A DNA stretch of 64,000 bases from a bacterium (GTDB lineage Bacteria; Patescibacteriota; Microgenomatia; Curtissbacterales; GWA2-41-24): the NCBI GenBank assembly GCA_021813945.1, contig JAKAJD010000002.1, forward strand, positions 33,343 through 97,342, given 5' to 3'. The position numbers and the translations under genes are program-made. The notes under the pieces were generated by a model that made no database searches, was not told where the DNA came from, and worked only from the letters and a program-made list of their open reading frames with translations. Within the stretch, counting starts at the first letter, position 1. Every line of letters begins with the position of its first letter. Positions 1-18,578 of the stretch are shown piece after piece.

Positions 1-201
1 CTGGCTGCGGCAAAAAAGCCACATGTTCAGTGACTTGAGCCGTCCATCGTCAAGGCCTGGCCTTGGCCTAAGCCGTATCTTGGAAAAAGGCCTGATCTTT
101 ATATCCAATTTATTTGACTTCACACTACGCTTCTGCCTAATATGGAATTAGAACTCGAGTTTCTAAAACGCCGAGCTTTCAAAGCGGAAGGACAGCCTGC
201 A

Positions 202-2673
202 ATGAAGCCCAAATTTAATCTGCCGTGGTTTTCTAAATACTTATTCTCATTCTTTCTCGTCGCCTTCGTTTTTCTTCTTGCCGGATATATCACAAAACCA
301 GCCAATGCCGCATTTTTTAACATAGTTGATCCGCCAACCTGGTCAGGCGACAATGTGACCTTTAAATGGGACAATCCTGGAACCTCAGCTGCAGTTTTAA
401 TCATTGTTGACTGGGACGACCCAACACATCCATCGGTGTATGACAGTGCAGCCAAAGGTGTATCTCTTTTGGGTAAAACTCAACTAACCGTTTCTACGAC
501 AGATTGGAATATCGCAGTTCACCCACCTGATGGTAGGTTTAAAGTTTCAATTGTCGTCGGTTTGACACTGGTTTCAAACGAAGTAATTTTTACGGTTCCT
601 GTGGTTGGCGCACCCTTATGCGCCTTTACATTCACCCCTACCTCGGTAGCACCAAGTGGACAATTCTTCATACAAAATATAAATGGTGTTGCCGGAAATC
701 CGTTTACTGCCGGATTAAAGGACAGCTCCGGTAGTATTTTATCTAATCCTCCTACTCAAAGTGGCAATTTCCCAGCTTCAAGCTTAACATTCACTGCCCC
801 CTCAAGTGCGGGAAATTATACAGTCTTCGTCCAAGATAATTCCACTAGCCCAGCTACTCAATGTGTAATCCCAGGCCTTTCAAGCAATATCTTAACCGTC
901 GGCTCTGCTTCTCCCCCACCCGGCACTGGCTGCAACATAGTGCCTGCCAATACCAGCTGGGACCCCTTAAAAGCCAGCGTTAACGGCTATGCAGTCACCT
1001 TCACCCTTCCAAAACCTTCAGATGGGATTGCCGGCATAGTCATCGAAAAAGACACAGACGGCACCGTCGCCCAGGATAGCGGCCCTTTGGCGTCTGGCAC
1101 TAACCAATGGATTTGGAACGCTCCAACCGGCTCAGACGGCTCGTATTGTGCCGCAATTTTTTGGACCACGTCTGCAGTTTCCACAGTCATACATTTTACC
1201 GTCCCAAGTGCTGGTAACGACACCTGTACCAGTAACGCTCTAAATTGGGTCAACGACGTCCGCTGCAAAGCTATAGGCGGCGGCTGGTTCGACAGTGATA
1301 TTTTTACCCTAGGCCAAGTTGGAGCCACATTTGACACTGGCAACGTCTTAGTCTGGGGTAAATCTCAACTTAATAGAAACATCAGTGATGCCACCCAAGG
1401 AAGAGGAGCACTTGCCTTAACCAGTAATTTGATTGCATCGCTGTATGCAGCTCCCCCGGCTTCCGGCGTCACTTATTTTGCCCAAAAAATCCAGGACTTA
1501 AACCCTGTCAGATCCGCTTATGCGGGTGCCGGCGGGCAATTCCCCGGTGGCATCGGCTATCAGGCCCTAGGACCGGTTCAAAAAATTTGGGTTGCATTTC
1601 GCAATATTTCCTATATCGGGTTCATAATAGTTTTTGTTGTCATGGGCTTTATGATCATGTTTCGGGCCCACATCTCCCCCCAAGCTGTTGCAACTGTCCA
1701 GGATTCTATCCCCAGAATCGTAATCGCGCTAATTTTGGTCACATTCAGTTACGCCATCGCCGGCTTTATGATCGATTTGATGTTTCTCTTTTTAAACATT
1801 GCAGTACAAGCTCTGGTTAGCACTCATTTGATTTCCAATGCTGACTTCGTTTTCAAAGATAACGTCTTCACGGTAATCTTTAGCAACTGGAAAGACGCGT
1901 TTGGAACCGTCTCTGATGCAATATCAAAAATAATCACTCAAACAATCGATCTTGGGATGTTCAATTTTGTATCTAAGGTGCTGGGATGGGCCGGTGGCAC
2001 ATTAGCAGGCTTGGTAGTTGGCATAGCCCTGCTCTTTATTATGTTCAGGGTATTTTTAATGCTTCTTATGGCCTACGTCATGATTATTCTTTTAACAATG
2101 TTCGCACCTTTCTTTTTCTTAATCCAGGCTCTTCCTGGCAATAACGGCGCCAAGGAGTGGTTTAAGCAAATGGCTTCCAATGTTGCCGTTTTCCCAGTTA
2201 CAGCTATGATGTTTATTTTTGCAGGCATCTTAAGTGGTATGACTGGTCTTGGCGGAACAGGATCCGGGGCAATTCAGCCAGCCCAAGTCGGCCAATTCCC
2301 GCTTTTGATTGGAGGATTGGATGCTGGCGCAATCGGAAATCTAATAGGTATTGGGTTTTTACTTATCACCCCCACTGCAGCCGACATGGTCAAAAACATG
2401 GTTGGCGGCGGCAGAGGCGGAGGCGGCGGTATGGGCAACATCGGCGCAGCGGCCCTTGGCGGGCTTGCTGGCGGCGCTGCAGTTGTAGGCGCAGCAGGCA
2501 GAGGAGCCGGCGGCGCACTAATCTCACGGGGCCCAATCGGCGGCTGGAGAAGAGCCCAAGAGGCAAGGCGTGGTGAAGAAGCGCAACGTACAGCTCACGC
2601 AGGCATTTACAGCAAAGAGTACCGTGAATGGCAAGAACAACTTGCCAAGACTAGAGCCAAAAAAGATGAGTAG
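202..2673 (+). CDS. VirB6/TrbL-like (PrgH/TcpH-type) polytopic membrane protein: N-terminal signal/TM, ~450-aa beta-rich extracellular domain, ~6 C-terminal TM helices, Gly-rich charged C-terminal tail
   Basis: Long ORF (table 142..2673). Start moved to the Met of MKPKF at 202, which has a GGAAGGA RBS 9 nt upstream and precedes the hydrophobic signal segment. The C-terminal half is multi-TM and Trp/Phe-rich like TrbL/VirB6. Family assignment is from architecture and genomic context only. Confidence 0.5.
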   Translation: MKPKFNLPWFSKYLFSFFLVAFVFLLAGYITKPANAAFFNIVDPPTWSGDNVTFKWDNPGTSAAVLIIVDWDDPTHPSVYDSAAKGVSLLGKTQLTVSTTDWNIAVHPPDGRFKVSIVVGLTLVSNEVIFTVPVVGAPLCAFTFTPTSVAPSGQFFIQNINGVAGNPFTAGLKDSSGSILSNPPTQSGNFPASSLTFTAPSSAGNYTVFVQDNSTSPATQCVIPGLSSNILTVGSASPPPGTGCNIVPANTSWDPLKASVNGYAVTFTLPKPSDGIAGIVIEKDTDGTVAQDSGPLASGTNQWIWNAPTGSDGSYCAAIFWTTSAVSTVIHFTVPSAGNDTCTSNALNWVNDVRCKAIGGGWFDSDIFTLGQVGATFDTGNVLVWGKSQLNRNISDATQGRGALALTSNLIASLYAAPPASGVTYFAQKIQDLNPVRSAYAGAGGQFPGGIGYQALGPVQKIWVAFRNISYIGFIIVFVVMGFMIMFRAHISPQAVATVQDSIPRIVIALILVTFSYAIAGFMIDLMFLFLNIAVQALVSTHLISNADFVFKDNVFTVIFSNWKDAFGTVSDAISKIITQTIDLGMFNFVSKVLGWAGGTLAGLVVGIALLFIMFRVFLMLLMAYVMIILLTMFAPFFFLIQALPGNNGAKEWFKQMASNVAVFPVTAMMFIFAGILSGMTGLGGTGSGAIQPAQVGQFPLLIGGLDAGAIGNLIGIGFLLITPTAADMVKNMVGGGRGGGGGMGNIGAAALGGLAGGAAVVGAAGRGAGGALISRGPIGGWRRAQEARRGEEAQRTAHAGIYSKEYREWQEQLAKTRAKKDE

Positions 2674-2675
2674 TT

Positions 2676-5600
2676 TCAGCGTGTTCCAGGTAAAGATTGT
2701 CTTGGCAACTGCTTAAAAAATTCCTTGACAGCTTCCCAAAAAGCCGAAAGCGGCGCATCAGCAACTAGGGTACCTTTAATGTCCCAAGCAATCCTGCGCC
2801 ACTTCTCTCCAAACCGTCTGATATACCTAAATGGCACTGTCCCGAAGAATTCTCCTAATGTTAGGCTTAATTCTTTATCCGTAAAAGGAACCTTCCCTCC
2901 AATTTTGGCAAAACCGAAAAACTTCGTCTTTTCCTTCTCTCCTTGTTTTCTTTCCATATCACCCTGTTGAATCATATCCTGTATGACTTGTTCACCACCG
3001 GCTGCGGTTAGATTAGGTCTGTCAAACAGATCACGCCGATACTTGCTCGCAAATCCCCAATGACCTCTGAATGCTAAAACTGCAAGTATGTGGTCTCTTG
3101 CAAACCTTGTTGAATATGCAAATCCTTTTACACGACTTATCATCGAAACCAGTTTGCTTTCAGTAGGATTACTCAGGTAGTCCTGAATCGTTTCCGGGCC
3201 TTCGGCTTCTAACCCTTTCTTAGCATCTGAAAAATAATCTATAAAACCGAACTTAGTCATCTCCTTATCCTTCGCCACCTGGCTAAACTTTGCCCCCTTA
3301 CTCGAAAAATACAGTGCCCCGTTCTTTATCATATCCATAATAACGACTGACTTCACCCAAGACACTGCTTCCTCATGATATGCCTTAGTGTCAATATCGT
3401 AATCCTTCATCATCTGCCTAATTCGCTGCTCAAAAACTCTTTTTTGATCAGGTGTCATAAACCTATCAGCCCATCGCACCATAAATGAAATCTGGGGCGT
3501 ATAGTAATGATGCTTGCCTGGAAACGCTTGTTTAAAAATCGTGTTCACTTCGTCCTGTTTAGCCCTTCCTCTATTTTCTACATCTTGGTTGAAGTGTGCC
3601 CAAAGGTCATCTCTCGCCCTTCCATGAAAAAGGTTTGTGCTGTGGTGAAATACTACACCGTCAAAATCATCATCAAACTTGCTTTTAGTGTCTTTCGAAT
3701 AAATCCTAATGTACTCCTGTGCACTCCACTGCATCATCCAAGTCCAATTAAATGCGTTATAATCAACAGAACCGAAAAAACCAACCTCCTCAAGCTCGTC
3801 AAAATCCGCATCCTTCAAATGCTCGAAAAATTTACGATACTCATCGCTATCTTCTTCGACAACGTCCTCCATGCTTGGATGGTACGTTCCCCTATAAACC
3901 TTAAGATCCATAGCTTTAAGCTTCTGAATAAGCCTTAACTGTTCTACTTCCCTCCAAACATCCAGATAAGATTTACCAACTCTAGTTTCCAAAAATTTAC
4001 GAATTTCACCCTCATCTTTCCCTAGTCTTCCCAAGAAATCGGCCAAGTCGCCCTTTAACCTCAATGCATGATCATTGCTAATCATCGCGTCGATATCATC
4101 TTGTTTCAAAGTTCCAAAAGCTCCATGGATTGTCCTCTTTTTGTGCCACTCATCAATCAATTCTCTTGTTTCTAAAATAAACTCCCGTCTTTCATCTACT
4201 AAACCTCTTTTTACCCCGCCTAACCTTGCCCAAACATCATCTACCCCGAGTGATTTCCCAGCCCACTTTCCACCAGGTTTTGTGTTGTCTGCAATCAACA
4301 TTGCGGTTCGTTTTCTGAAATAGTCCCTTAATTTATAGAACTCATATTCCCATTTGTCCCTATACGTTCTGCCATCAACCGTCACCGACTGCCTCCATTC
4401 ATCTTCAAGATCTCCAAAACCCTCTCTTGCCTTTATTCGCGACATTAAACTCGCGGAATAATTTCCATCCGTATCTATCGAGAGCCTCGTTAGCTCCTCA
4501 ATCATGTTCATCCTTATCCTGTCGTCATTTACATCCTTACTATAAATATCCTGCAAAGAGACATCATACGTATTTAGCCTTACGTATCTGGTTTTGCCAT
4601 CTTTACCCACCTCTTTAACATAAAACGGCCTCCCCCTTGTATCCTCACCAAATCTTTCAACATAATATTCAACGGTCGTTTCTTTCCTACCTTCAAAACC
4701 GTTGAGTACACCATCAACAGCCGCAGGATGCATATCTTTCTCCTCAAGCGTCATATAAACAGAAAGCATCAGCGCAGAAGCATCGATTCTATCAGCAAGC
4801 GCAGACCTTCTCTCTCTATCTTCTTTCGTCTCAGTTGGTAATACTTGAAGCATTGATTTGGCACTCTGAATCATAGGCCTTAACTCCTCTGGGCCCAGAT
4901 CAAGATCCTCCATAAAACTAAAGATACGTGCAATATTTTTAGGAACATCATCAGGATCGCCTGGAGATCTGAATATCTGGTGCTCTTCCAAAGCTCGCTC
5001 AAGTGTGTAATAGTACCGGCTGGCTTTCCACTGGCGAAGACCTATTGGGTCATCTTTATCTTTAACAGACCCTAAAATATCGGTAGAAGCCTCGTTCAAA
5101 TCACGCCAATCACTCAGCATCGCGCTTAAGTAATGGTTACCTTTTATGACCAAATCGCCAACCTTAGCCTTTTGGTTTTCTGTTGAGTCGTTTTCGTAAA
5201 TTTGTGTGTACCTGTTGTGAATTCTCCGATATAAGTGTGTATGTTCATCGTTCCAACTGATAAACTTGTTCGCGAAGTCAACTCCCCCAAGAGCTTCCAC
5301 AATTTTCTGCCTCCCACCAGCATCCTGAAGCCTATAGACATCGTTAATTGCCTTTGCCACTTCAAAAACATACCTTGCCGAAGCCATTTTTTGAGTTTCA
5401 GTACTGCCATCAGCATTTCTAAAAGGCACATCCACGAACATATCATCGGGGTTTACATGATCTATTTTTACAGCTTCTACGCGCTTAGTGGCCTCCTCAG
5501 CCATATCGGCAAACCTTTTCAATTCGCTGGCGCGATCAGCCCATTCGCCTGATGCCCTATCTTGCTTTAGCATATCTTTAATAAGAGCCTTTAAACCTGT

Positions 5601-6602
5601 GGTCACGGTAAGCAAATGCTCGGCCATTGGAGTTTCCCGATTACTCCTAGTCTCTAATTTCAAAAGTGAATCTACTTTTCTGGAAAGAATATCTCGCACT
5701 TCTGATACTTTAGGATCACTAGCCTCTAATGTTCCATCTAAAACTGCGTTATCGATTGCACTTTCTATATCCGGAAACTTTATTCTCTGAACTTCAAATG
5801 GCCTTAGTTTAGCGAGCTTAATCTCCCGTACGAACCTTTTGAATTTATCATCGATTGTGCTTAAATCTACTTCATCGATCTCCTCGTCAACAGTTTTGGT
5901 TCCACTAGCCCCTGGGCCACCAGTTTTTGGCTCCCAGTCACCTTTTCCTTTATAAGCAGACGAATATTTCTCAATCTTTTCCAGAGTTAAAAACTCACCA
6001 TCATCCAAATCTTTTGCACGCATGACTTCCTCACGTTTCAGTGCTTCTTCAACTCTCCGTTGGTCGCTTCCGGCAGCATATTTGAAATCATCATCAGCCG
6101 GGTCATCCACAACACTGTAATGGAAAATTATCTGCCCAATTGCCATAGCTTCTGTATCACTAATCTTGCCAATCTTCTCATCATCAAAAACTCCGCTTCG
6201 TTTAAGAAGTCGCCTGAAAAGATCCCTGTCTGTATCTGACTCCACGACTTCTTGCCCGTCTCGAATCCTGTTATAAGTAGTCGAGAGTGCTTGCGCCTCC
6301 GCAAATGAAACATGGGGATTCTGCGCAGAACCGGCTTCATTCATGCGCTTTAATACCTCTCGCAATCTTACAGGGTCGAGTGTCAGGCAGAAACTCTCCA
6401 CATCCATTCGCATATCTCCGGATGGCTTAAACCGGGTTTCCCTGGGCTTAGTCGCACTATTTTCTGGAGTAGGCCTTTCTAGTACCGCAACACCAGCCCC
6501 AACAGGCTGCTTTTCCACCACACCAGCATCAGGCATAACAAATATCCCTCCACCTTGAGCGTAGCTGGTTTGGGCAGCGTATGCAACATTTCTCTCGTTC
6601 AT
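2676..6602 (-). CDS. Large (1308 aa) highly charged soluble hypothetical protein; no TM, no Walker motifs, no recognisable catalytic motif
   Basis: Uninterrupted 3.9-kb ORF, divergent from the regulator gene. The composition is D/E/K/R/W-rich. I could find no known domain by eye. Confidence 0.6.
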   Translation of the reverse strand: MNERNVAYAAQTSYAQGGGIFVMPDAGVVEKQPVGAGVAVLERPTPENSATKPRETRFKPSGDMRMDVESFCLTLDPVRLREVLKRMNEAGSAQNPHVSFAEAQALSTTYNRIRDGQEVVESDTDRDLFRRLLKRSGVFDDEKIGKISDTEAMAIGQIIFHYSVVDDPADDDFKYAAGSDQRRVEEALKREEVMRAKDLDDGEFLTLEKIEKYSSAYKGKGDWEPKTGGPGASGTKTVDEEIDEVDLSTIDDKFKRFVREIKLAKLRPFEVQRIKFPDIESAIDNAVLDGTLEASDPKVSEVRDILSRKVDSLLKLETRSNRETPMAEHLLTVTTGLKALIKDMLKQDRASGEWADRASELKRFADMAEEATKRVEAVKIDHVNPDDMFVDVPFRNADGSTETQKMASARYVFEVAKAINDVYRLQDAGGRQKIVEALGGVDFANKFISWNDEHTHLYRRIHNRYTQIYENDSTENQKAKVGDLVIKGNHYLSAMLSDWRDLNEASTDILGSVKDKDDPIGLRQWKASRYYYTLERALEEHQIFRSPGDPDDVPKNIARIFSFMEDLDLGPEELRPMIQSAKSMLQVLPTETKEDRERRSALADRIDASALMLSVYMTLEEKDMHPAAVDGVLNGFEGRKETTVEYYVERFGEDTRGRPFYVKEVGKDGKTRYVRLNTYDVSLQDIYSKDVNDDRIRMNMIEELTRLSIDTDGNYSASLMSRIKAREGFGDLEDEWRQSVTVDGRTYRDKWEYEFYKLRDYFRKRTAMLIADNTKPGGKWAGKSLGVDDVWARLGGVKRGLVDERREFILETRELIDEWHKKRTIHGAFGTLKQDDIDAMISNDHALRLKGDLADFLGRLGKDEGEIRKFLETRVGKSYLDVWREVEQLRLIQKLKAMDLKVYRGTYHPSMEDVVEEDSDEYRKFFEHLKDADFDELEEVGFFGSVDYNAFNWTWMMQWSAQEYIRIYSKDTKSKFDDDFDGVVFHHSTNLFHGRARDDLWAHFNQDVENRGRAKQDEVNTIFKQAFPGKHHYYTPQISFMVRWADRFMTPDQKRVFEQRIRQMMKDYDIDTKAYHEEAVSWVKSVVIMDMIKNGALYFSSKGAKFSQVAKDKEMTKFGFIDYFSDAKKGLEAEGPETIQDYLSNPTESKLVSMISRVKGFAYSTRFARDHILAVLAFRGHWGFASKYRRDLFDRPNLTAAGGEQVIQDMIQQGDMERKQGEKEKTKFFGFAKIGGKVPFTDKELSLTLGEFFGTVPFRYIRRFGEKWRRIAWDIKGTLVADAPLSAFWEAVKEFFKQLPRQSLPGTR

Positions 6603-6647
6603 GTTGCACGTAGATTAACCTAGGCATAAAATGTGTGCTTGATATTT

Positions 6648-6667
6648 AGCTAACAGGAAGCTAACAG
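6648..6667. promoter_or_regulatory. Tandem direct repeat AGCTAACAG-GA-AGCTAACAG overlapping the -35 position of a TATAAT (6682..6687) upstream of the regulator gene; candidate operator
   Basis: Read directly from the sequence. The same GCTAAC core recurs at 8138..8246. Confidence 0.3.
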
Positions 6668-6717
6668 TTCACCCAGTTAGATATAATAGGGATATGTATT
6701 TTGCAACAACGGGGTAA

Positions 6718-7974
6718 ATGAAAATATTTGAATCAGATTTTCCTCCTGATTACCGGTCGGCCGAAATAAAAGCAATTTTGGCCTATATAACAACAGGCAA
6801 ATTCTGCCAGCTTATTTGCATACCAGGGGCCGGCAAGGCAACTATCCTTCGGCTTCTTGCCCATAACCGCAAGCTTTTAAAATCTCACCTCGGCGAAAAA
6901 GAAAAGGGCCTTCGTTTTGTCTATATCAACTTTTTCGAACTCACAAATTTTACAGAAGCCGAAATCATAAAGTTGCTGCTAATCGGTTTGGATGAAAAGT
7001 TCCAAAACTCAGACGACCCACTTCTTCTTGGTAGAGATCTTCATGAGGCAGTAAACCGTCTTTCCCAAAATGGCCAAACCATTATTTTTCTTTTTGACCA
7101 TTTCGACGAACACCAAAACCGGCTACCGCATACTTTTTTCCAAATGCTAAAAAGCCTGAGAAACTTGGCAAAATTCAAGTTTTCCGTTGTTTTCGCAACA
7201 AGAAGAGATCTTGCCGGTCTTGTCGATGAAGACATTCTCAAAGATTATTGGGATTTTTTTGTTGGCAATACTGTTTACTTAAAAGTCTACGACAAGGTTG
7301 CCGTAGAGTATTTATTCACACAAATTGAAAACGTTTTCGGCCAAAAAATTAAAGCCGAACAAAAAACGCAGATCACAAAATTAACAGGCGGCCATGCAAA
7401 GCTGACAAAAATAATCTCCGAGCTCGTTCTTGGTAAGGCTGTCAAACCCCAAACAGAAAATCTCCTAAAAGAGACCCCGGTCATGGCTGCTCTTTATGAA
7501 ATCTGGCTGTTTTTAACAAGTTCGGAACAACAGCTACTATCAAAAATCTCAGAAGGTAAAACTTCAGATCAAATAGATGAAAACCTTATCAAGTTAGACC
7601 TGGTTTCTTATCAAAACAAATTCACCATTCCATTACTGGAAGATTTTGTAAAAAGTGCCAAATTAAATGTCCAAACGAAAATTATCTTTGACCCCCAAAC
7701 CAATGAAATTAAAAGGGGTGAAAGTATCATCTCCGAAATTCTCTCCGCCCAAGAATATCGCTTGCTTAAATTTCTAATCGAAAATCCTAATAAAGTAATA
7801 GGTCGAGACGAAATAATTAAAGCGGTTTGGCCGCAAACCGAAGTTACAGAAGCGATAAGCGACGAGGCCATAGATCAAATGGTTTTTCGACTTAGAAAGA
7901 AGATAGAGGACGAGCCACAAAAACCCATCCACATTCAAACCGTAAAGGGCATAGGTCTCAAATTCGAACCCTAG
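6718..7974 (+). CDS. Transcriptional regulator: N-terminal P-loop ATPase (GAGKAT, Walker B-like FLFDHFDE) fused to a C-terminal OmpR/PhoB-type winged-helix DNA-binding domain
   Basis: The C-terminal ~100 aa (EYRLLKFLIENPNKVIGRDEI...VFRLRKKIE...IQTVKGIGLKF) match the trans_reg_C fold pattern. The N-terminus has a Walker A. Confidence 0.65.
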   Translation: MKIFESDFPPDYRSAEIKAILAYITTGKFCQLICIPGAGKATILRLLAHNRKLLKSHLGEKEKGLRFVYINFFELTNFTEAEIIKLLLIGLDEKFQNSDDPLLLGRDLHEAVNRLSQNGQTIIFLFDHFDEHQNRLPHTFFQMLKSLRNLAKFKFSVVFATRRDLAGLVDEDILKDYWDFFVGNTVYLKVYDKVAVEYLFTQIENVFGQKIKAEQKTQITKLTGGHAKLTKIISELVLGKAVKPQTENLLKETPVMAALYEIWLFLTSSEQQLLSKISEGKTSDQIDENLIKLDLVSYQNKFTIPLLEDFVKSAKLNVQTKIIFDPQTNEIKRGESIISEILSAQEYRLLKFLIENPNKVIGRDEIIKAVWPQTEVTEAISDEAIDQMVFRLRKKIEDEPQKPIHIQTVKGIGLKFEP

Positions 7975-8137
7975 CAAAATTTGTCGTCAGAATCATTAAC
8001 AAAGGTCAGGCCTTTGTTGGGATATTCATAGCCTAAGACCTGACCTTGAGATAAAGACTGGTCGGTCTCCATCAGCGATAGTTACCAAAACATATCCCAC
8101 CATATCATCAAATTTCTGTGAAAATCGCAAACTTTTG

Positions 8138-8246
8138 AAGCTAATGAGGCCACTTCTCGCACTTGATTTCATATGTTATGGTGGCATAGAAGCTAACCTA
8201 ACGCAAAAATTGCACCGCATTAATCTTTTGTCGTTAGTCGTTAGAC
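8138..8246. promoter_or_regulatory. Cluster of GAAGCTAA(C/T) / CTAAC / GTCGTTAG repeat motifs upstream of the PrgI-like/VirB4 operon
   Basis: GAAGCTAAT at 8138, GAAGCTAACCTAACGC at 8190, and tandem GTCGTTAGTCGTTAG at 8231. GTTAG is the reverse complement of CTAAC. Confidence 0.3.
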
Positions 8247-8252
8247 CTAAAA

Positions 8253-9803
8253 ATGGAGCAGCATCCTGTCCCGCAGCATATAGCGGCTTTTGAATTTAAA
8301 CTATTTGGCAACCTTACTGCAAGACAGTTTATAACTCTCATCTTTCCCCTTTCAATAGCAGCTATAACCTATTTCTCTTCACTTCCTATATTGGTGCGTA
8401 TACCCTTAGCTTTGACAATAGGCATCGTTGGCGCTTTTATTGCCCTTGTTCCTGTCGGCGGTAGACCTTTTGACAAATGGATTTTCGCCTTCATAAAAGC
8501 TGTGTCAGCCCCGACACAAAGAGTCTGGATAAAAGAAAAGCGGATCCCTGGATTTTTAAGTATTGTCACCAAACCTCCCCAAAAAGAGGTCAAAATTCCC
8601 CAGGAAATCACCGAAAAAGGTAGAGAAAGAATGATTGCTTATTTACGTTCTCTTCCAAAAGAAAATGTCACTTCTTTAGACATCAAGGAACAACTGGCCC
8701 TAGATAGGCTTGGCTTTCCGGCAAGCCAGTATGAAGGCAACTTGCCGCCCGCAATTCTTTGGCCCGTTAGCCCTTGGGAAGATAAATACGTAGCAATAGG
8801 GCAAGGCGAATCAGGTTATCTTTTGGGTTCTTTGCCACAAGTTGCTGGTCCGCTTGAGGAAATTCCCCAAAGCCAGACAGCTCCGGTTTTAGAACCCGAA
8901 CCAAGACCCCAAATAACATCCCAACAGGCTGCCCCATCAGCTGTTACGCGTGCAAAAATCCAGCCGCAAGCAAAACAGTTTACTCTTTCTGGCCTCGAAA
9001 AGCGCCTGGATCATAAACCACAGGAAATAATTGATCTTGCCAGACCCAGCGCCCATCTTGCCTCGGAAACAAACTATTCGCTCGACAACGTAATTCCCAT
9101 CAAAATCTCCGAGGGCCAATTTCGCCTTGTGCACGGAGTCGGCAACACCAGGGTCAGAAAGCTTCACTTTGCACCTCCAGCAAATTTTGATCTTTCTAAA
9201 CTACCAATTCGCGGAGAGCGCAAATTCGACATTTCAGACGAACTTAAAAAAAGATATCATTTCGAAGACGATTCTCCAGCAGTAGTTTTACCTATTCAAC
9301 AAGAAAAGATTCAAGCTGCACCGCAAGCAGTTGATGTTCCCGAGGCAAACCCAATACCCTTACCCAAACCAGAAGCCGTCCACTTACCCGACGAGCATCA
9401 TGCCAAACTAGCACCCAAACAGGAGGAAAAACCCAAAGTGGAAAAAAGTGAATTTTCTCAATTTTCTATATCGGATAAAGATCAAAACCAGCAAACTGGA
9501 AACGTCCAGCAAGCTCAAATCATTCCCCTAACTGACAAGCCAAACATCCTTTCGGGACTCGTAACAGACGAAAAAGGAAGCCCCATCGAAAGTGCCGTTC
9601 TGGTTGTCCGCGACGAAAGCGGAATACCGGTCAGAGCCTTAAAAACCAACAAGCTTGGCCAATTTCTTTCCGCCACCCCGCTTTCCAGCGGTAGCTACAC
9701 AATTGAGGCAGAAAGTGATCTTGCCTCCTTTAAACCAGTCTCAATACATTTAACCGGCCAAATTCTCGCTCCGATTGGAGTCAAAGGAGAAAGGATAAAC
9801 TAA
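8253..9803 (+). CDS. PrgI/VirB3-like N-terminal two-TM domain fused via a Pro/Gln-rich linker to a C-terminal carboxypeptidase-regulatory-like (CarboxypepD_reg / Cna-B-like) beta-sandwich domain
   Basis: The N-terminus (FEFKLFGNLTARQFITL...GGRPFDKWIFAF) matches the PrgI-family pattern. The C-terminus (GLVTDEKGSPIESAVLVV...GSYTIEAE) matches CarboxypepD_reg. Confidence 0.5.
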   Translation: MEQHPVPQHIAAFEFKLFGNLTARQFITLIFPLSIAAITYFSSLPILVRIPLALTIGIVGAFIALVPVGGRPFDKWIFAFIKAVSAPTQRVWIKEKRIPGFLSIVTKPPQKEVKIPQEITEKGRERMIAYLRSLPKENVTSLDIKEQLALDRLGFPASQYEGNLPPAILWPVSPWEDKYVAIGQGESGYLLGSLPQVAGPLEEIPQSQTAPVLEPEPRPQITSQQAAPSAVTRAKIQPQAKQFTLSGLEKRLDHKPQEIIDLARPSAHLASETNYSLDNVIPIKISEGQFRLVHGVGNTRVRKLHFAPPANFDLSKLPIRGERKFDISDELKKRYHFEDDSPAVVLPIQQEKIQAAPQAVDVPEANPIPLPKPEAVHLPDEHHAKLAPKQEEKPKVEKSEFSQFSISDKDQNQQTGNVQQAQIIPLTDKPNILSGLVTDEKGSPIESAVLVVRDESGIPVRALKTNKLGQFLSATPLSSGSYTIEAESDLASFKPVSIHLTGQILAPIGVKGERIN

Positions 9804-9804
9804 A

Positions 9805-10707
9805 GTGGCTCCTTCTGCCCAAAAAATTAAGGCTTCAACCCAAGAGCATTTGGATATTGAAGACATAACCGAAGACTTTGTAATTTTAAAAACCGGCTGG
9901 GTTGCTATGGTCCTTTCCACAACCGCAGTTAATTTTGACATCCTCTCCGAAGCCGAGCAAGATGCGACTATTTACGCTTATGGTGCCCTTTTAAATTCCC
10001 TAACCTTCCCCATCCAGATTTTAATCCGTTCCAAAAGAGCAGATATAACAGCCTATTATCAACATTTAGTCGAAGCGGAAAGAAACCAGCAAAACCCTGA
10101 TCTCAAACGCCAAATTCAAAAATATATGGACTTCATCCAGTCTACCGTTCAGCAAAAAACCATTCTTGACAAGCGCTTTTACCTTATACTTAGCTTTTCC
10201 CCAATCGAACTCGGCTTAACTGGCATCAAAAAACCTGCAAAAACCAGCAACAAAGAGCAACAAGTTCAAGACGCTAAAGTTGCCCTAGCGCCAAAACGCG
10301 AACATTTAATTAAACAAACGGCCCGCCTAGGTCTTACTACCAAACAGCTCACCACAAAAGAGTTAATTGAACTGTTTTATGACATTTACAATCCTGCTCC
10401 CACTGGCACCCAAAGAGTTATTCTGGACTCCGCCTCCTACACAACCCCCATGGTCGAGCCAGCCGTTGAAGTGCCAAGCCCCGCGCCGAATCAGCCACCA
10501 CCAACTTATACTCAGGAACCTTCCCAGGCACCTATACCACAACCAGCTTATGCCGATTCTCTGCCTAATATTAACGGGCAACAATCAGCCCCTTCACAAA
10601 TGGAGGCTCTGGAAAACCTCAAGGCGGCAACCGCCAAAGCCGCGCAATCAATACGCGGAGAACAGCAAATAAGTCCCAACCAAACAAACCAAACAATCCA
10701 GCAATGA
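9805..10707 (+). CDS. Hypothetical T4SS-associated protein, translationally coupled to VirB4 (ATGA overlap); Pro-rich C-terminus
   Basis: ORF lying between the PrgI-like and VirB4 genes. The N-terminal segment (DIEDITEDFVILKTGW...NFDILSEAEQDATIYAYGALLNSL) loosely resembles the N-terminal region of VirB4/TraC proteins. Confidence 0.45.
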   Translation: MAPSAQKIKASTQEHLDIEDITEDFVILKTGWVAMVLSTTAVNFDILSEAEQDATIYAYGALLNSLTFPIQILIRSKRADITAYYQHLVEAERNQQNPDLKRQIQKYMDFIQSTVQQKTILDKRFYLILSFSPIELGLTGIKKPAKTSNKEQQVQDAKVALAPKREHLIKQTARLGLTTKQLTTKELIELFYDIYNPAPTGTQRVILDSASYTTPMVEPAVEVPSPAPNQPPPTYTQEPSQAPIPQPAYADSLPNINGQQSAPSQMEALENLKAATAKAAQSIRGEQQISPNQTNQTIQQ

Positions 10708-12578
10708 ACCTCGTTAGCATTCTAAAACCAAAAAACAAAAACCCCCAGGAATCTTTAAGTGATAAGGAGAAACAGTGGTCGCAGAGCCTGGCCAAAGGTG
10801 TCGTTTCCGTCAAAGACATTATTGCTCCACCAGCCATCGAGGTTGACTTCGACTATATCAAAATCGGCTCAACCTACTTTCGTACTCTTTTTGTCGTCGG
10901 CTACCCAAGGTACGTCCAAGCCAATTGGCTTTCACCTCTAATTAATTTCGTCCACACTTTGGAAATTTCCATGTACCAATATCCGGTAGAAGCCAAAGGT
11001 GTTTTGGATGATCTTAAGCGTAAAGTTACCGAAATGGAAGCTACCATCGCATCTGACATCCAGCACGGTAAAGTCTTAGACCCTGCCGTTCAAGCTGCCC
11101 TAGAAGACGCCCAGATGCTTCAGGAAGAGCTGGTCAAAGGACAGGAGCGCTTTTTCCAGTTCGGCCTTTATGTCACCATCCCGGCCGACTCAAAAGAGGA
11201 GTTGGACCTGGTCACCAGACAGGTTGAATCGACAATGGGCGCCCTACTTTTGGTTCCTAAACACGCTACATTGCAAATGGAAGATGCCTTCAAAACAACT
11301 CTTCCTCAACAAACCGACCATCTCTATATCACCCGCAACATGGACACCACCTCCCTTGCCACAACTTTTCCATTCATCTCCTCATCGCTAACCTCCAACA
11401 CTGGCATCATGTACGGCATAAACGAGCACAATGGTTCGTTGGTTATTTTCGACCGATTCACTCAAGAAAACGCCAATTCCGTAATCTTTGCCAAATCCGG
11501 AGCCGGAAAATCTTACCTTGTCAAACTAGAGGCCCTAAGGTCGCTGATGTTTGGTACGGAAGTAATCGTCGTCGACCCTGAAGAAGAATATAAAAACCTT
11601 TGTGAAGCCATCGGTGGTGAATACATCACTTTTAGCTTTGACTCGCCGGCTAAAATTAACCCTTTTGACCTTTCGGGCGTTTATGAAGAAGGCGAAAACG
11701 AGCTTGGCTTAAAAATTCTTTCTCTTCACGGCTTTTTCAAAGTCGTCATGGGCAATATGAGCCCCGCCGAAGATGCGGTTTTAGACAAAGCCCTTGTTGA
11801 CACTTACAGACAAAAAGGCATTACTCCCGACCCGTCTACCCAGAAAAACGAGCCGCCTCTCATGGAAGATCTCTACAAGGTGCTACTCGGCATGGAAGAA
11901 GTTGAAGCCAAAAGCCTTGCTGATCGCATTGAAAAATTCGTCAAAGGTTCTTTAATCGGCATTTTTAACCAACAATCCAATATCGATCTGCGCAACACCT
12001 TTACCGTCTTTTCCGTCAAAAGCCTGGAGGAAGAACTTCGGCCAATTGCCATGTATCTCATTTTGGATTTTATCTGGACAAGAATTAAAAACGACATCCG
12101 AAAACGCCTTCTTGTTGTCGATGAGGCCTGGTACATGATGGAATTCCCAGACAGCGCTACCTTCCTTTATTCAATCGCCAAACGCGCTCGCAAATACTAC
12201 CTTGGCCTCACCACCATTTCCCAGGACGTTGAAGATTTTTTAAGTACTGATTACGGCAAAGCTATCGTCACTAACTCCTCCTTTCAAATACTTTTGAAAC
12301 AATCTCCTGCTGCAATCGACAAAGTTGCCGAAGTCTTTTACCTTTCCGAGGGTGAAAGGCACTTGCTTTTGGCAGCCGACGTTGGTGAAGGCATCTTTTT
12401 TGCTGGTCCTAACCATGTAGCGGTCCGTATTATGGCATCAGAAGAGGAACACGCCTTGGTTACTACCAACCCGGAAGAGCTAAAACAAAGACGAGATCAG
12501 CAAGAAGCAGCATCAGCACACCAAAACCAAGATTCCCAACCATCGCAAACACCATCTCTTCCAAACACATCTCAATAA
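10704..12578 (+). CDS. virB4: VirB4/TraC/TrsE-like type IV secretion ATPase
   Basis: Walker A FAKSGAGKSY and Walker B RLLVVDEAWYMM. The N-terminal segment IEVDFDYIKIGSTYFRTLFVVGYPRYV is typical of Gram-positive-type VirB4. Length is 624 aa. Confidence 0.8.
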   Translation: MNLVSILKPKNKNPQESLSDKEKQWSQSLAKGVVSVKDIIAPPAIEVDFDYIKIGSTYFRTLFVVGYPRYVQANWLSPLINFVHTLEISMYQYPVEAKGVLDDLKRKVTEMEATIASDIQHGKVLDPAVQAALEDAQMLQEELVKGQERFFQFGLYVTIPADSKEELDLVTRQVESTMGALLLVPKHATLQMEDAFKTTLPQQTDHLYITRNMDTTSLATTFPFISSSLTSNTGIMYGINEHNGSLVIFDRFTQENANSVIFAKSGAGKSYLVKLEALRSLMFGTEVIVVDPEEEYKNLCEAIGGEYITFSFDSPAKINPFDLSGVYEEGENELGLKILSLHGFFKVVMGNMSPAEDAVLDKALVDTYRQKGITPDPSTQKNEPPLMEDLYKVLLGMEEVEAKSLADRIEKFVKGSLIGIFNQQSNIDLRNTFTVFSVKSLEEELRPIAMYLILDFIWTRIKNDIRKRLLVVDEAWYMMEFPDSATFLYSIAKRARKYYLGLTTISQDVEDFLSTDYGKAIVTNSSFQILLKQSPAAIDKVAEVFYLSEGERHLLLAADVGEGIFFAGPNHVAVRIMASEEEHALVTTNPEELKQRRDQQEAASAHQNQDSQPSQTPSLPNTSQ

Positions 12579-12665
12579 CTTTAGATTTACTCCCCAGCCT
12601 TTTTCATCATTATTAAGTCTACTTTGCTTTAAGTTAGAAGTTGCTAGTATATTTAATTAGGCCCC

Positions 12666-14669
12666 ATGTCTGTTTTGGATAAAATCAAAAAACTTAAAAA
12701 TCTTAAAAACCTCAACCCCGAAAGCCAAGTATCGCAGCTTGCCAAAAAAGCCGCAATGTATCTATCTCTTGGTGTCTCAGCCGCATTTTTAGCCGCCTTG
12801 GCATATTTCGCCCACCTCGGAAAAGTTGCTTTCTTTGGTTTCAAAATCGGCGCAACTGCAGGTGGTACGGCAGGCGCAATATGGGGTGGATATATAGGTA
12901 TTCAAGTTGGAATCGCATTAGCACCATACACCTTTGGCATTTCATTGATAGTCGCCCCGCCCCTTGGAGTACTTATTGGTGCCATAGGTGGTGCCACCTT
13001 GCTGGGAATAGCCGGCGGTCTGATCGCCCTCGGCCTCGATCAAGGCTCTGCAGGCCTGGTTTCAACCGGAGTCGGAGCGGGTGTGGGAGGCATCATTGGC
13101 ACCTACGTAGCAGGCGCATTTATTTCGTTTGCAATTGGAGCGTGCGCAGCTACAGTCTTTGGGTGCCTTTTAGTGCCTATCGCAGTGGTATCCGCCCCAA
13201 TCATAATTGTAACCTTCAGTGCTATAGGAGCTGGTGCGGGTTACCTAATTGGCAACTATGTAATTGATCCTGTCAAATCTTATATTGGTGGAGTCTCGAT
13301 AAGTGGTTCCGCCTCAGGCTTCTTGTCTTGGCTTGGCGGGGGAATTACTGGATTGGGATCTTGGGCTGTGGGCGGTCTCTTCAGCCTTGGTGGCTTAGCA
13401 GTAGACGGTATAACCAGCATTGGTAGTAAGCTCTTGGGAACGCTTTCCACCAGCGCAGGTCCTCTTGCTGGGAAATTAGCGGGTATCTCAGTAGGGACAG
13501 CTTTCACATCGGCAGCTACACTGAGCTTACTTCAAACAGGGGTCCTAACCCCTGGGAAATTCGCAACAACCCAGACGGATATATCTAAACCGGCTGGGGC
13601 CAACCAATATGTAACCGTCACTAAAACCGCCAACCCTACTACAATCTCCAATTCAAGCTTACCAACCGACATCAACTACTTGGTTACAGTAAAGGTCAAT
13701 TCTTACGCCTTAACCAACGTCGTCTGCACCGATGTTACAACATTGAAAAAGAGTGATGGAACTACTCAAAACTTAACTAATACTTTAATAGGGCCCCTTT
13801 GCCCTTCACAACTTAACCCTGCCCAAGTTCTTACATTTAATCTTTCAACTCATGCGGACAACACTCCCGACTTTATCAATTCGACAGTTTCCAACACTTT
13901 CACCATTAACTTTGACGTCACCGGTGGAGGGGCTCCACCTCCCACGGGAGGCGGCGGCCCATGCAGTGCAAACAGCGGTTTTAATGCTCTCCTGCCTAAC
14001 CCTATACCACCAAGCGTCGGCGCCACATCACCCAGCTCTTTGCCTCCAGACCCTGCAATCATCCAGGCAGCCCAGCAAGCAACTTTGCAAACTGGCGTAC
14101 CTTGCGAAATGCTAGTCGGCATTCAATACCGCGAAGCCGGCTGGGATGCCAATAGCTCGTTTTTAAGCGGAACCACATTGTGTTCGTCAGGAAATTTTGC
14201 CATATGCAAACCGGAACCCAACATTACGTCTTCATCAGCATGTACCGGTTATGGCGGTACCTGGTACTCTGGCGGGTGCTATTTTACAAGTTTAAATCAA
14301 ACCGCTTTAGCATCAGCAAGTTACATTCTGGGCGAGGTCTCGTCACTTACTCGCGGGCCCGAACGCCCACCAAAAAATTACGATGAAATGATAGGAGCAA
14401 TGTCATATTATAATGGCGGCGGCAATGCTAATTGCGGAGCCGGGGTACCTTACACGGGGCCTTGCCCTGGCCCTATTGGGATTGACGATCCTTATGCAGT
14501 CAATCATTTTGATTCTGACCACGCAACAATGTACCTTCTCTATTGCAGCCAATATACCGACGCCAGCGGAGTTGTCCATGGGATACCTTGCGACCCTCCC
14601 CGAGTCTTAACAACAGACGGTGCGGCAACCGCAGCCAAAGAGTATTATTTAAAGATAGGCGGTCACTAG
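12666..14669 (+). CDS. Polytopic membrane protein with an extreme Gly-zipper N-terminal region (~280 aa, many GxxxG) and a Cys-rich extracellular C-terminal domain; possible cell-wall-lytic or adhesin-like function
   Basis: The composition comes from the translation. The C-terminal segment VPCEMLVGIQYREAGWD is weakly lysozyme/SLT-like but not convincing. Confidence 0.5.
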   Translation: MSVLDKIKKLKNLKNLNPESQVSQLAKKAAMYLSLGVSAAFLAALAYFAHLGKVAFFGFKIGATAGGTAGAIWGGYIGIQVGIALAPYTFGISLIVAPPLGVLIGAIGGATLLGIAGGLIALGLDQGSAGLVSTGVGAGVGGIIGTYVAGAFISFAIGACAATVFGCLLVPIAVVSAPIIIVTFSAIGAGAGYLIGNYVIDPVKSYIGGVSISGSASGFLSWLGGGITGLGSWAVGGLFSLGGLAVDGITSIGSKLLGTLSTSAGPLAGKLAGISVGTAFTSAATLSLLQTGVLTPGKFATTQTDISKPAGANQYVTVTKTANPTTISNSSLPTDINYLVTVKVNSYALTNVVCTDVTTLKKSDGTTQNLTNTLIGPLCPSQLNPAQVLTFNLSTHADNTPDFINSTVSNTFTINFDVTGGGAPPPTGGGGPCSANSGFNALLPNPIPPSVGATSPSSLPPDPAIIQAAQQATLQTGVPCEMLVGIQYREAGWDANSSFLSGTTLCSSGNFAICKPEPNITSSSACTGYGGTWYSGGCYFTSLNQTALASASYILGEVSSLTRGPERPPKNYDEMIGAMSYYNGGGNANCGAGVPYTGPCPGPIGIDDPYAVNHFDSDHATMYLLYCSQYTDASGVVHGIPCDPPRVLTTDGAATAAKEYYLKIGGH

Positions 14670-15256
14670 TGAAACTAAGTCTTACATCGGTCAAAAAAGA
14701 AACTCTCCCTTTAGCTATTTTGGCAACCATTATTATCATTCTATTGGGCTTTGTAATTACCCAGCAAATACTGAAAAACAGACCGTTCCAAACTGCACAA
14801 TTACCTCCCCCCATCAAACTTCAGCCCGTTGTTAATGGAAAATTTGACACAAATGCTCCAATAAGCCAAAAATCTAAAGCTTCGGTTGAGCTTTTAAAAC
14901 AACATCTGCCTTACAAAGCAGATTTTGTTAGTACAACAGGAGATAAAATAACCTACACCCTGTATGGCAAAACTATAGACCCTTATACATTGTATGTGGA
15001 TATATCCAATATAGATTTTTTAATACCTTCAACAAATCCCAATTATCCCAAAACTATTCAAGATTTCCGTGACACAGCTAATCATATTTTCGAATATATG
15101 AAACAATATAACGCCAACCCGTCAGATGTTTTTATTTCCTGGGGCAGCCAAGCATACATTCAAAACAACGCAGAGTTGTGGCTTACTGTTTCTGACAAAT
15201 TTCCACCCGTGGTAAAAAAGGATAACCAATATATTTTTGAAACACCGCCGAAATGA
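14669..15256 (+). CDS. Bitopic membrane protein (N-terminal TM, ~160-aa ectodomain); candidate VirB8-like subunit (speculative)
   Basis: The table ORF at 14543 overlaps the preceding gene. A GTG at 14669 overlaps the upstream TAG by 1 nt and precedes the TM helix LPLAILATIIIILLGFVI. Confidence 0.4.
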   Translation: MKLSLTSVKKETLPLAILATIIIILLGFVITQQILKNRPFQTAQLPPPIKLQPVVNGKFDTNAPISQKSKASVELLKQHLPYKADFVSTTGDKITYTLYGKTIDPYTLYVDISNIDFLIPSTNPNYPKTIQDFRDTANHIFEYMKQYNANPSDVFISWGSQAYIQNNAELWLTVSDKFPPVVKKDNQYIFETPPK

Positions 15257-15867
15257 TAAGAACGACTTTCTATATTCAGAAATTAAGATTAATAATCGCT
15301 ATTATCGACGCAATAATCATATTAATAATGTTCCCTTATACGGTTTTTGCCGCCAGCTTTTCCGGTTCCGCAACGGCCGTGACCATAATCGGCACCTCAT
15401 CATCTCAATGCCCACAAAGCTGGCCTTTGGCTCATGGTTACATCACTCAAGGACCTCAAGGAACAACAAGTCATTACCGGCTATATCCAAATGAGCAAGC
15501 AATTGACATCGGCGGCAATCCTACAGATACTCCTGCTTTCGCCACATTTTCTGGAACTGTGCTTGTTGCCCAAACCGACTATACCCCCGGTGTTGGTTAT
15601 GGCAGATATGTCGATATTCAAGGCACTTGCAATGGCGCTGCCTTTACAGGCCGCTGGGCTCACTTAGACTATATCGATGGAGCGGTCACAGTTGGAAGTA
15701 AGGTCAATTTCGGACAACTAATAGGAGGTATTGACAACACAGGTAATAGTGAGGGCACGCATTTGCATTATTCTTTTCTAGGTCTAACAATGGGAACACC
15801 ATACATCCCTCAAAATCCGGCTTTTTCGACGTGTAATTCAAACGTTGCTTGTAATATTAATTGGTAA
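15253..15867 (+). CDS. Secreted peptidase M23 (LytM-type) family protein
   Basis: Signal peptide present. M23 motifs are HYRLYPNEQAIDIGG and the C-terminal NSEGTHLHYSF (HxH). Confidence 0.8.
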   Translation: MIRTTFYIQKLRLIIAIIDAIIILIMFPYTVFAASFSGSATAVTIIGTSSSQCPQSWPLAHGYITQGPQGTTSHYRLYPNEQAIDIGGNPTDTPAFATFSGTVLVAQTDYTPGVGYGRYVDIQGTCNGAAFTGRWAHLDYIDGAVTVGSKVNFGQLIGGIDNTGNSEGTHLHYSFLGLTMGTPYIPQNPAFSTCNSNVACNINW

Positions 15868-18353: not shown

Positions 18354-18578
18354 AATTGTTGGTGGACAGACCCTGGGGATTATAACACCTTCATTATAAA
18401 CACCTTAAACATTCAAATCTATACATACTAAGCAATATTCTAAAACGTAGTTGTAGTTTAATATATGTTGATAAGTTTAAACCTATTAATAAATTGTGCG
18501 CAGACTTATGTTCAAAAATGTGTGTAAAATTTTCAATTTAAAGTTAAATATTCGAAAAAAAGTGTGGAGAAAATACCT
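18354..18578. other. Candidate oriC / DNA-unwinding element: AT-rich dnaA-dnaN intergenic region with DnaA-box-like 9-mers
   Basis: TGTTGATAA (18467..18475), TGTGGAGAA near 18565, TTATAAACA near 18395, and very AT-rich runs. Confidence 0.5.

Follow-up and report, generated by a model that had tools for sequence, protein, structure and literature searches.

A 64,000-nucleotide stretch of a Microgenomates genome (order Curtissbacterales; contig JAKAJD010000002.1, positions 33,343 to 97,342 of the forward strand; hereafter the window) encodes a 418 amino acid protein with a P-loop nucleotide-binding module at its N-terminus and an OmpR/PhoB-type winged helix at its C-terminus. We consider that this protein, hereafter the regulator, is probably a sensor-less one-component transcription factor of STAND-OmpR type acting on a large divergent gene and on its own promoter through a conserved operator block located between the two genes. 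To our knowledge gene regulation in the Candidate Phyla Radiation (CPR, Patescibacteria) is almost unexplored, and the locus offers a testable triplet conserved across two candidate phyla: the regulator family, an operator of ~31 bp and a predicted fast-evolving giant target beside secretion genes. Comparative genomics also corrects the gene predicted to be controlled, which becomes the large divergent gene instead of the secretion operon favoured by a first-pass annotation of the same DNA.

Pfam matched PF00486 (Trans_reg_C) to residues 342-415 of the regulator (E=1.1e-19, 70.7 bits against a cut-off of 26.2), the alignments to NCBIfam response-regulator models were confined to residues ~315-418, and a search of the PDB using a profile of 89 homologs matched only OmpR/PhoB-type DNA-binding domains (PhoB, KdpE, CovR, RegX3, OmpR and ToxR) at residues ~320-418. 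An AlphaFold2 model with the homolog alignment as input (predicted local distance difference test, pLDDT, 91.8; predicted template modelling score, pTM, 0.88) divides the protein into a nucleotide-binding domain (residues ~1-190), a helical lid (~193-240), a small winged helix (~246-315) and the OmpR/PhoB winged helix (~320-418). The C-terminal domain consists of an N-terminal beta-sheet (strands 322-325 and 330-333), three helices (344-355, 363-370 and 382-396) and a C-terminal beta-hairpin wing (strands 406-409 and 413-416), and was matched by Foldseek to the DNA-binding domain of CovR with a template modelling (TM) score of 0.78 and a root-mean-square deviation of 2.5. Its recognition helix, DEAIDQMVFRLRKKI, is almost unvarying among homologs of the regulator, with A384, D386, Q387, R391, R393 and K395 forming invariant columns of the domain alignment, and this near-invariant helix matches the conserved TwACA core of the operator described below. 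Pfam and the model therefore bear out the domain order of the first-pass annotation, an ATPase followed by a trans_reg_C winged helix, including the winged-helix fold on which that annotation had staked its proposal. Its description of this order as unusual holds within the OmpR-domain family only, since an ATPase preceding a DNA-binding domain is also found in MalT/LAL, NtrC-type activators, DnaA and Orc1/Cdc6. There was no Pfam match in the regulator to Response_reg (receiver), the N-terminus having a P-loop fold instead, nor to BTAD, TPR, the LuxR/GerE helix-turn-helix or a repeat-type sensor domain, the OmpR domain following directly on the small winged helix. Among neighbouring genes within ~10 kb of the regulator we detected no histidine kinase domain.

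The N-terminal domain (residues ~1-190) is modelled as a five-stranded P-loop fold. Sequence searches with this part of the protein gave no match in the PDB and none above threshold in Pfam, where AAA_22 aligned to residues 28-166 at 25.2 bits against a cut-off of 27. The best folds found by Foldseek in the PDB were archaeal Cdc6/Orc1 (1fnn, E=4e-8) and PAB2304 (2qen, TM 0.47/0.55), then MuB, TnsC, RuvB and RFC, the likeness to Orc1/Cdc6 being a structural one (E=4e-8, TM 0.42-0.47). The motifs include a P-loop CIPGAGKAT (residues 34-42), a Walker B IIFLFD (D127), a sensor-1-like R163 and an invariant G225-H226 in the lid. We take R163, which follows strand 4, to resemble the 'TTR' sensor of NB-ARC and the invariant G225-H226 to occupy the position of the GxP motif, and the module is best described as STAND-like. 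The Walker A motif of the window protein is deviant, with Cys for the first Gly and Ala for the Mg-binding Ser/Thr, and so does not conform to the canonical GxxxxGK[ST]; its lysine is Arg in 28 of 214 relatives and distant relatives carry the canonical GxxxxGKS. Judged from these motifs nucleotide binding is plausible. Of the 'ATP-dependent switch' put forward by the first-pass annotation the P-loop fold stands, while ATP dependence becomes uncertain because the Walker A motif is deviant.

We identified more than 340 homologs of the regulator, nearly all of ~420 amino acids, the named ones coming exclusively from Candidatus Curtissbacteria or Levybacteria, both CPR Microgenomates. The N-terminal 320 residues used alone as the query recovered 515 clusters at 50 % identity, almost all 400-470 amino acids in length. 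Trans_reg_C is present at the C-terminus of all ten distant family members sampled and several distant members match nSTAND1, nSTAND2, NACHT, NB-ARC or AAA_16 at the N-terminus, some of them above threshold. One distant relative derives from Anaerolineae, and one has the module embedded in a protein of 1784 amino acids that also contains TIR and TCAD9 domains. NCBI labels family members merely as 'winged helix-turn-helix domain-containing protein' and our literature search found no paper describing the family. Without a receiver, BTAD, LuxR helix-turn-helix or sensor domain the regulator fails the defining features of MalT/LAL, SARP and OmpR response regulators, and its architecture, a P-loop switch followed by an OmpR winged helix with no sensor, is undescribed.

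To examine the DNA beside the regulator we assembled 81 sequences, comprising 80 fetched related loci and the window. In 55 of these, from both Curtissbacteria and Levybacteria, the regulator is accompanied by the block CTTGAyAtTTa-sCTwACAr-n4-CTwACAr, which occurs once per locus and precedes the regulator by 45-100 bp, or by ~500-600 bp where a small open reading frame (ORF) intervenes. Conservation defines the operator by a CTwACAr core, an 11-bp period and CTTGATAT in front. A position-weight matrix scored its own sites at 31-45 bits compared with ≤ 11 bits for the best non-self site in 227 kb of Curtissbacteria loci, and in a leave-one-out test using a matrix of the repeats only the site took first rank in 50 of the 55 loci and second rank in the remaining five. 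With the window left out of the matrix, position 6648 scored 25.7 bits and the runner-up in the window, which falls inside an ORF, 13.8 bits; by the conservation-defined motif the window holds one operator site only. Among 241 million metagenome records an unbiased scan for the exact pattern returned 13 hits, ten of which lie beside a regulator homolog. The remaining three comprise a truncated contig with the expected start of the large gene, a site beside an ORF of 198 amino acids that weakly resembles the OmpR winged helix, and one unrelated hit. Since the repeat is conserved in 55 of 81 loci, scores highly by matrix and is found in metagenomes mostly beside the regulator, we regard it as a real cis-element tied to the regulator.

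In the window the operator contains direct repeats at 6648..6656 and 6659..6667, and AGCTAACAG occurs exactly twice in the 64 kb, starting at 6648 and 6659. The tandem AGCTAACAG-GA-AGCTAACAG at 6648..6667 had been placed over a -35 position by the first-pass annotation, and we find the same, the second copy covering the -35 (6659..6664) of the TATAAT at 6682..6687. The GCTAAC enrichment that the annotation had proposed to look for, which we examined in the window, is absent (23 matches against 24.1 expected). Exact 9-nt direct repeats at an offset of 10-12 are not rare in the window (2 observed, 1.2 expected), and GAAGCTAA is present in 6 copies against 3.25 expected, a number reached by 12 of 100 shuffles, with three of the six copies falling in the two intergenic regions that flank the regulator. 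As these counts are unremarkable, the significance of the operator derives from conservation across genomes and not from the window. Neither of the regulator-flanking intergenic regions contained a full promoter by a consensus sigma-70 scan, and an Rfam scan of 6300..8500 gave no match.

On the strand of the large gene the elements follow the order [repeat-n4-repeat-ctaa-ATATCAAG]-N20-(-10)-N6-10-ATG in most of the 64 loci that have both the block and a long ORF. The -10 follows the pattern TAnAcT, with TAATCT in the window and the variants TAAACT, TACACT and TAAAAT, and the sequences of the 64 loci show no -35 consensus; TCAAG-N20-TAnAnT, tested in the window as a general promoter pattern, proved not to be one. 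The large genes found at the block encode 800-1600 amino acids and are either divergent from or downstream of the regulator. In ~20 Levybacteria loci there is no block upstream of the regulator and it is found inverted just past the regulator stop codon, before a gene of ~1000-1180 amino acids. The orientation and spacing of the block are constant relative to the large gene, including in genomes where this gene is downstream of the regulator, and are not fixed relative to the PrgI/VirB4 secretion operon. Because of this constancy the large gene is the conserved predicted target. Spacing would place the repeats at about -41 to -62 of its promoter, and the closeness of the ATG to the -10 points to a near-leaderless mRNA. 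OmpR-family activators work from about -41 to -62 at promoters without a -35, and OmpR/PhoB domains bind direct repeats of 10-11 bp that lie at the -35 or upstream of it.

On the regulator side, the second repeat of Curtissbacteria orthologs is followed by a TATAAT at a distance of 2-4 nt or of 11-14 nt, two spacings that differ by about one helical turn. The second repeat itself (TAACAG) lacks the final T of a -10, and the TATAAT is separate from it. In Levybacteria TTGATA-N18-TACAAT makes a good sigma-70 promoter, the second repeat itself serving as the -10. Since the conserved direct repeat overlaps the regulator's own promoter, the autoregulation suggested by the first-pass annotation is plausible. 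Some Levybacteria loci contain a second, weaker half-block of TTGAyA and one repeat (L029:12633, L068:12783, L071:12864, L026:12955 and L064:168), which has the same N20-(-10) geometry before a gene for an Ala/Pro/Glu-rich protein and in several cases lies back-to-back with a tRNA gene. This gene may be a second target. The coordinates of the features in the window are collected in Table 1.

Table 1 Positions of the regulator, its predicted operator and target, and the adjoining secretion operon within the 64-kb window
Feature	Position	Strand	Basis or remark
Regulator gene, 418 amino acids	6718..7974	+	ORF call and translation
OmpR/PhoB-type winged-helix DNA-binding domain, residues 320-418	7675..7971	+	Pfam, PDB profile matches, AlphaFold2 fold
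Conserved operator block CTTGATATTT-AGCTAACAG-GA-AGCTAACAG-T, ~31 bp	6638..6668	.	Cross-genome conservation, matrix scores
TATAAT, likely -10 of the regulator promoter	6682..6687	+	Second repeat occupies its -35 position
Predicted -10 of the large gene, TAATCT	6612..6617	-	Separated by 20 nt from the block and by 9 nt from the ATG at 6602; no -35 consensus
Large divergent gene, 1308 amino acids, predicted primary target	2676..6602	-	Block geometry
PrgI promoter block TGTGAAAA ... GAAGCTAAT (8137..8145) ... CTTGATTTCATATG-T-TATGGT; extended -10 TGT-TATGGT at 8174..8182	8117..8182	+	
PrgI leader: GAAGCTAACCTAACGC at 8189..8204 and tandem heptamer GTCGTTA x2.1 (GTCGTTAGTCGTTAG) at 8230..8244	8189..8245	+	Not sequence-conserved in orthologs
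Monoderm-type secretion (T4SS-like) operon: PrgI-domain protein, split VirB4, polytopic membrane protein, M23 peptidase, others	8253..16916	+	

We propose that the regulator is a one-component transcription factor in which a C-terminal OmpR/PhoB winged helix is joined to an NTPase module of STAND/AAA+-like type without a sensor. Two, possibly three, protomers would bind head-to-tail on the 11-bp-spaced AGCTAACAG/AGCTAACAG and perhaps also on the adjacent degenerate ATATCAAG. At the -35-less promoter of the large gene the repeats would occupy the position used for RNA polymerase recruitment by factors of OmpR/PhoB type. The same site covers the -35 of the regulator promoter in Curtissbacteria, or the spacer and -10 in Levybacteria, which would provide self-feedback. 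Nucleotide binding to the N-terminal module probably governs oligomerisation, as in MalT, with hydrolysis perhaps weak or lost in this clade. That the regulator binds the block, in which direction it acts, what the nucleotide does and any effect on the secretion operon are inferred from this comparison of sequences and models.

Several observations weigh against this proposal. Binding of the block by the regulator and control of expression are predictions of comparative genomics, and neither a sensor domain nor a partner was seen. The deviant Walker A motif, together with the replacement of its lysine by Arg in some relatives, means that a switch driven by ATP hydrolysis is not assured. The two half-sites show no co-variation within a locus beyond their shared consensus. 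The TTGATA-N18-TACAAT of Levybacteria reads as an ordinary sigma-70 promoter, so that part of the conservation is promoter function. Finally, the large gene has no unequivocal start, its product being given as 1308 or 1286 amino acids, the latter from M23, by different gene callers.

The promoter-like appearance of the block could be extended to the whole of it, which would then be a compact bidirectional core promoter needed by both genes, with TTGATA as the -35 and the repeats as -10-like sequence or spacer, while the regulator acted elsewhere. The quality of TTGAyA-N17/18-TACAAT as a sigma-70 promoter in Levybacteria, the half-blocks that in some loci of that group adjoin tRNA genes and have an identical N20-(-10) geometry, and the lack of co-variation between half-sites within loci are all consistent with such a promoter. 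We nevertheless consider it unlikely. The first repeat is conserved although it would lie in the promoter spacer, which is normally unconstrained, and in Curtissbacteria the second repeat lacks the final T of a -10 and is followed by a separate TATAAT. In the loci with the block downstream of the regulator, where no forward gene follows, both repeats keep TTACA while the promoter hexamers have degenerated, the one to TTTATA and the other to TACAAA or TACAGA, with loss of the final T required of a -10. Because TTACA is kept while the hexamers decay, the repeats are predicted to be protein-binding sites and not mere promoter hexamers. In addition, the block was essentially confined to the neighbourhood of the regulator in the unbiased metagenome scan, and TCAAG-N20-TAnAnT is no general promoter pattern in the window. 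A regulator bound to the repeats thus remains our preferred reading of the block.

A second alternative is the one advanced by the first-pass annotation: GCTAAC-type motifs in the intergenic regions on either side would be bound by the regulator, which would control its own expression and switch the PrgI/VirB4 operon directly. This operon encodes a type IV secretion system (T4SS)-like machine, and a PrgI/VirB4 cluster was present within 6 kb of the regulator in 42 of the 52 loci flanked by 5 kb or more on each side. Such synteny favours a direct switch, as do the six copies of GAAGCTAA in the window, three of which lie in the two intergenic regions, and the conservation (as GAGGCTA) of GAAGCTAAT at 8137, which is situated ~45-50 nt upstream of the predicted PrgI transcription start and has GCTA in common with the half-site. 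The operator matrix, however, found nothing of ≥ 8 bits in 7975..8252, where the best half-site reached 6.6 of 14.9 bits, and the half-site matrix showed no significant enrichment upstream of PrgI in orthologous loci (3.3 against 2.2 per kb), GCTAAC itself being unenriched. The elements at 8138..8246 that had been taken for the same motif are thus not the operator. The orientation of the operon relative to the regulator also varies, 39 of the 54 loci with a detected T4SS gene being co-directional downstream, 11 divergent upstream and 4 convergent.

The PrgI promoter instead has a different conserved block of its own. A by-eye alignment of 12 Curtissbacteria loci gave the consensus TGTGAAAA...GAGGCTA...CTACTTTCCGCCnCTTGTTTCATATGkTATGGTG with an extended -10, its separate elements being TGTGAAAA, GAGGCTA, CTACTTTCCGCC, a palindromic CATATG and the extended -10 TGnTATGGT. 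Of the three sequences cited by the annotation, GAAGCTAAT is the GAGGCTA of this block, and the other two, GAAGCTAACCTAACGC and GTCGTTAGTCGTTAG, fall in the transcribed leader and are not conserved, GAAGCTAACCTAACGC starting at the predicted PrgI transcription start and GTCGTTAGTCGTTAG being replaced in other genomes by unrelated heptamers. The strong conservation of the promoter region suggests that the PrgI operon has a second regulator. It accordingly appears improbable to us that the regulator controls the operon directly by way of a motif common to both; a functional link between the regulator and the T4SS operon is suggested only by synteny.

Within the secretion operon VirB4 is split into overlapping ORFs at 9805..10707 (300 amino acids, the N-terminal TraC/TrsD-like part) and 10704..12578 (624 amino acids, the ATPase), a split that is kept in all related loci. 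The T4SS cluster is followed directly by dnaN and dnaA (17214-19937, minus strand), which places the module near the replication origin, and T4SS loci next to dnaN and dnaA have been reported in Patescibacteria (PMC12102498). Just past the regulator stop codon, at 7995-8060, the sequences AAGGTCAGG ... CCTGACCTT form a long inverted repeat that encloses an ACAAAGG/CCTTTGT hairpin; the repeat has no T-tract and hence is not a canonical terminator.

In 23 related loci an ORF of 120-187 amino acids has been inserted between the operator block and the regulator (for example L002:1754-2282, L021:5479-6001 and L006:5497-6001). Five of the inserted ORFs were tested and match the 23S rRNA intervening sequence (IVS) four-helix-bundle family PF05635, four being above the Pfam cut-off and one just below. 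An insertion of the same kind separates PrgI from its promoter in L002. These insertions are flanked by locus-specific tandem repeats of 7-8 nt, such as CTAGTNG, AACAATN and GAATTTN, and the two copies of TCGTTAG in the PrgI leader of the window (8230-8244) may be the footprint of an IVS-type insertion phenomenon.

The predicted target encodes a soluble protein, 33 % of whose residues are charged, without a transmembrane segment and with no relative in Pfam, NCBIfam or the PDB. In the closest locus, L001, the regulator is 69 % and VirB4 93 % identical, compared with only 24 % over a partial alignment for the large protein, which by this measure is very fast-evolving. Word-based homolog searches with the single sequence and with a 12-sequence profile found only three proteins, and AlphaFold2 applied to the C-terminal 859 amino acids with a four-row alignment gave no usable model (pLDDT 37.8). 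HHalign detected no significant similarity between the large proteins of Curtissbacteria and Levybacteria, its best segment (E=0.61) covering a short N-terminal peptide, ..LT..(Y/L)...G.IF-MP(E/D).G, which is all that the two groups have in common. M[PASD][EDG] is found within residues 4-50 in 39 of 64 large proteins compared with 5 % of other, equally long segments. M23 has an internal Shine-Dalgarno-like GGAGGG in front of it (window 6536-6602, minus strand); because of this sequence and the disagreement between gene callers, both starts may be used, and the conserved 'G.IF-MPE' peptide may partly reflect the internal ribosome-binding site. The neighbouring gene at 142..2673 encodes a polytopic membrane protein and is also syntenic.

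It is very unlikely that the regulator is not primarily a transcription factor but an Orc1/Cdc6-like or T4SS-associated DNA-binding ATPase marking a near-origin site, or an invader-triggered conflict-system STAND protein with a winged-helix effector: the best structural matches to Cdc6/Orc1, MuB and TnsC, a location ~10 kb from dnaN and dnaA (PMC12102498), the single distant relative with TIR and TCAD9 and the fast evolution of the neighbouring large protein would fit, but the site has the fixed spacing to a -10 box and start codon that transcription control predicts, and consists of two repeats only with no iteron array or AT-rich unwinding element, the family keeps its chromosomal position in nearly all members as opposed to a variable defence-island context, and the DNA-binding domain is of classical transcription-factor type.

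If the regulator does control the large gene, the pair might be a dedicated switch for a giant hypervariable cytoplasmic protein expressed from a near-leaderless promoter, that protein being a cargo or effector of the T4SS-like machine. We regard this combination as conceivable though rather doubtful, the role of the large protein as cargo or effector being speculation. The T4SS-like cluster of Patescibacteria has none of the conjugation components, and a cultivated relative cannot grow epibiotically without certain genes of the cluster (PMC12102498). Were the proposal true, Microgenomates would be gating their host-interaction functions with a STAND-OmpR factor that has no sensor, and the large-gene family would provide the group with its first candidate T4SS substrate.

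Among known regulators the closest parallel in layout is with MalT/LAL, where the NTPase is likewise N-terminal and the DNA-binding domain C-terminal, and the AlphaFold2 fold shares the arrangement of nucleotide-binding domain, helical domain and winged helix. MalT/LAL proteins undergo nucleotide-dependent oligomerisation and then bind arrays of repeated boxes, and the same would be expected of the regulator by analogy with MalT. It differs from MalT/LAL, which are cited as STAND regulators (PMC13581612), in having an OmpR/PhoB domain and not LuxR/GerE, no SUPR/TPR sensor, a length of 418 against ~900 amino acids and a deviant Walker A motif. With SARP/AfsR (OmpR-type winged helix and BTAD, with or without NB-ARC and TPR) it has in common the OmpR-type winged helix, its combination with an NTPase, which is STAND-class in SARP/AfsR and STAND-like in the regulator, and direct-repeat operators over the -35; however the winged helix is N-terminal in those proteins and C-terminal in the regulator, which has neither BTAD nor TPR and belongs to the CPR and not to Actinobacteria. 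OmpR/PhoB response regulators share the C-terminal winged helix and tandem repeats of ~11-bp period at or upstream of the -35 of a -35-less promoter, whereas the regulator has a P-loop NTPase as its input module in place of a receiver and no histidine kinase nearby. Archaeal Orc1/Cdc6 and PAB2304-type ATPases, which are AAA+ proteins with a C-terminal winged helix, provide the best whole-chain structural matches; the regulator has no sequence-level membership of these groups and is set apart from them by its extra OmpR domain and by the promoter-type geometry of its site.

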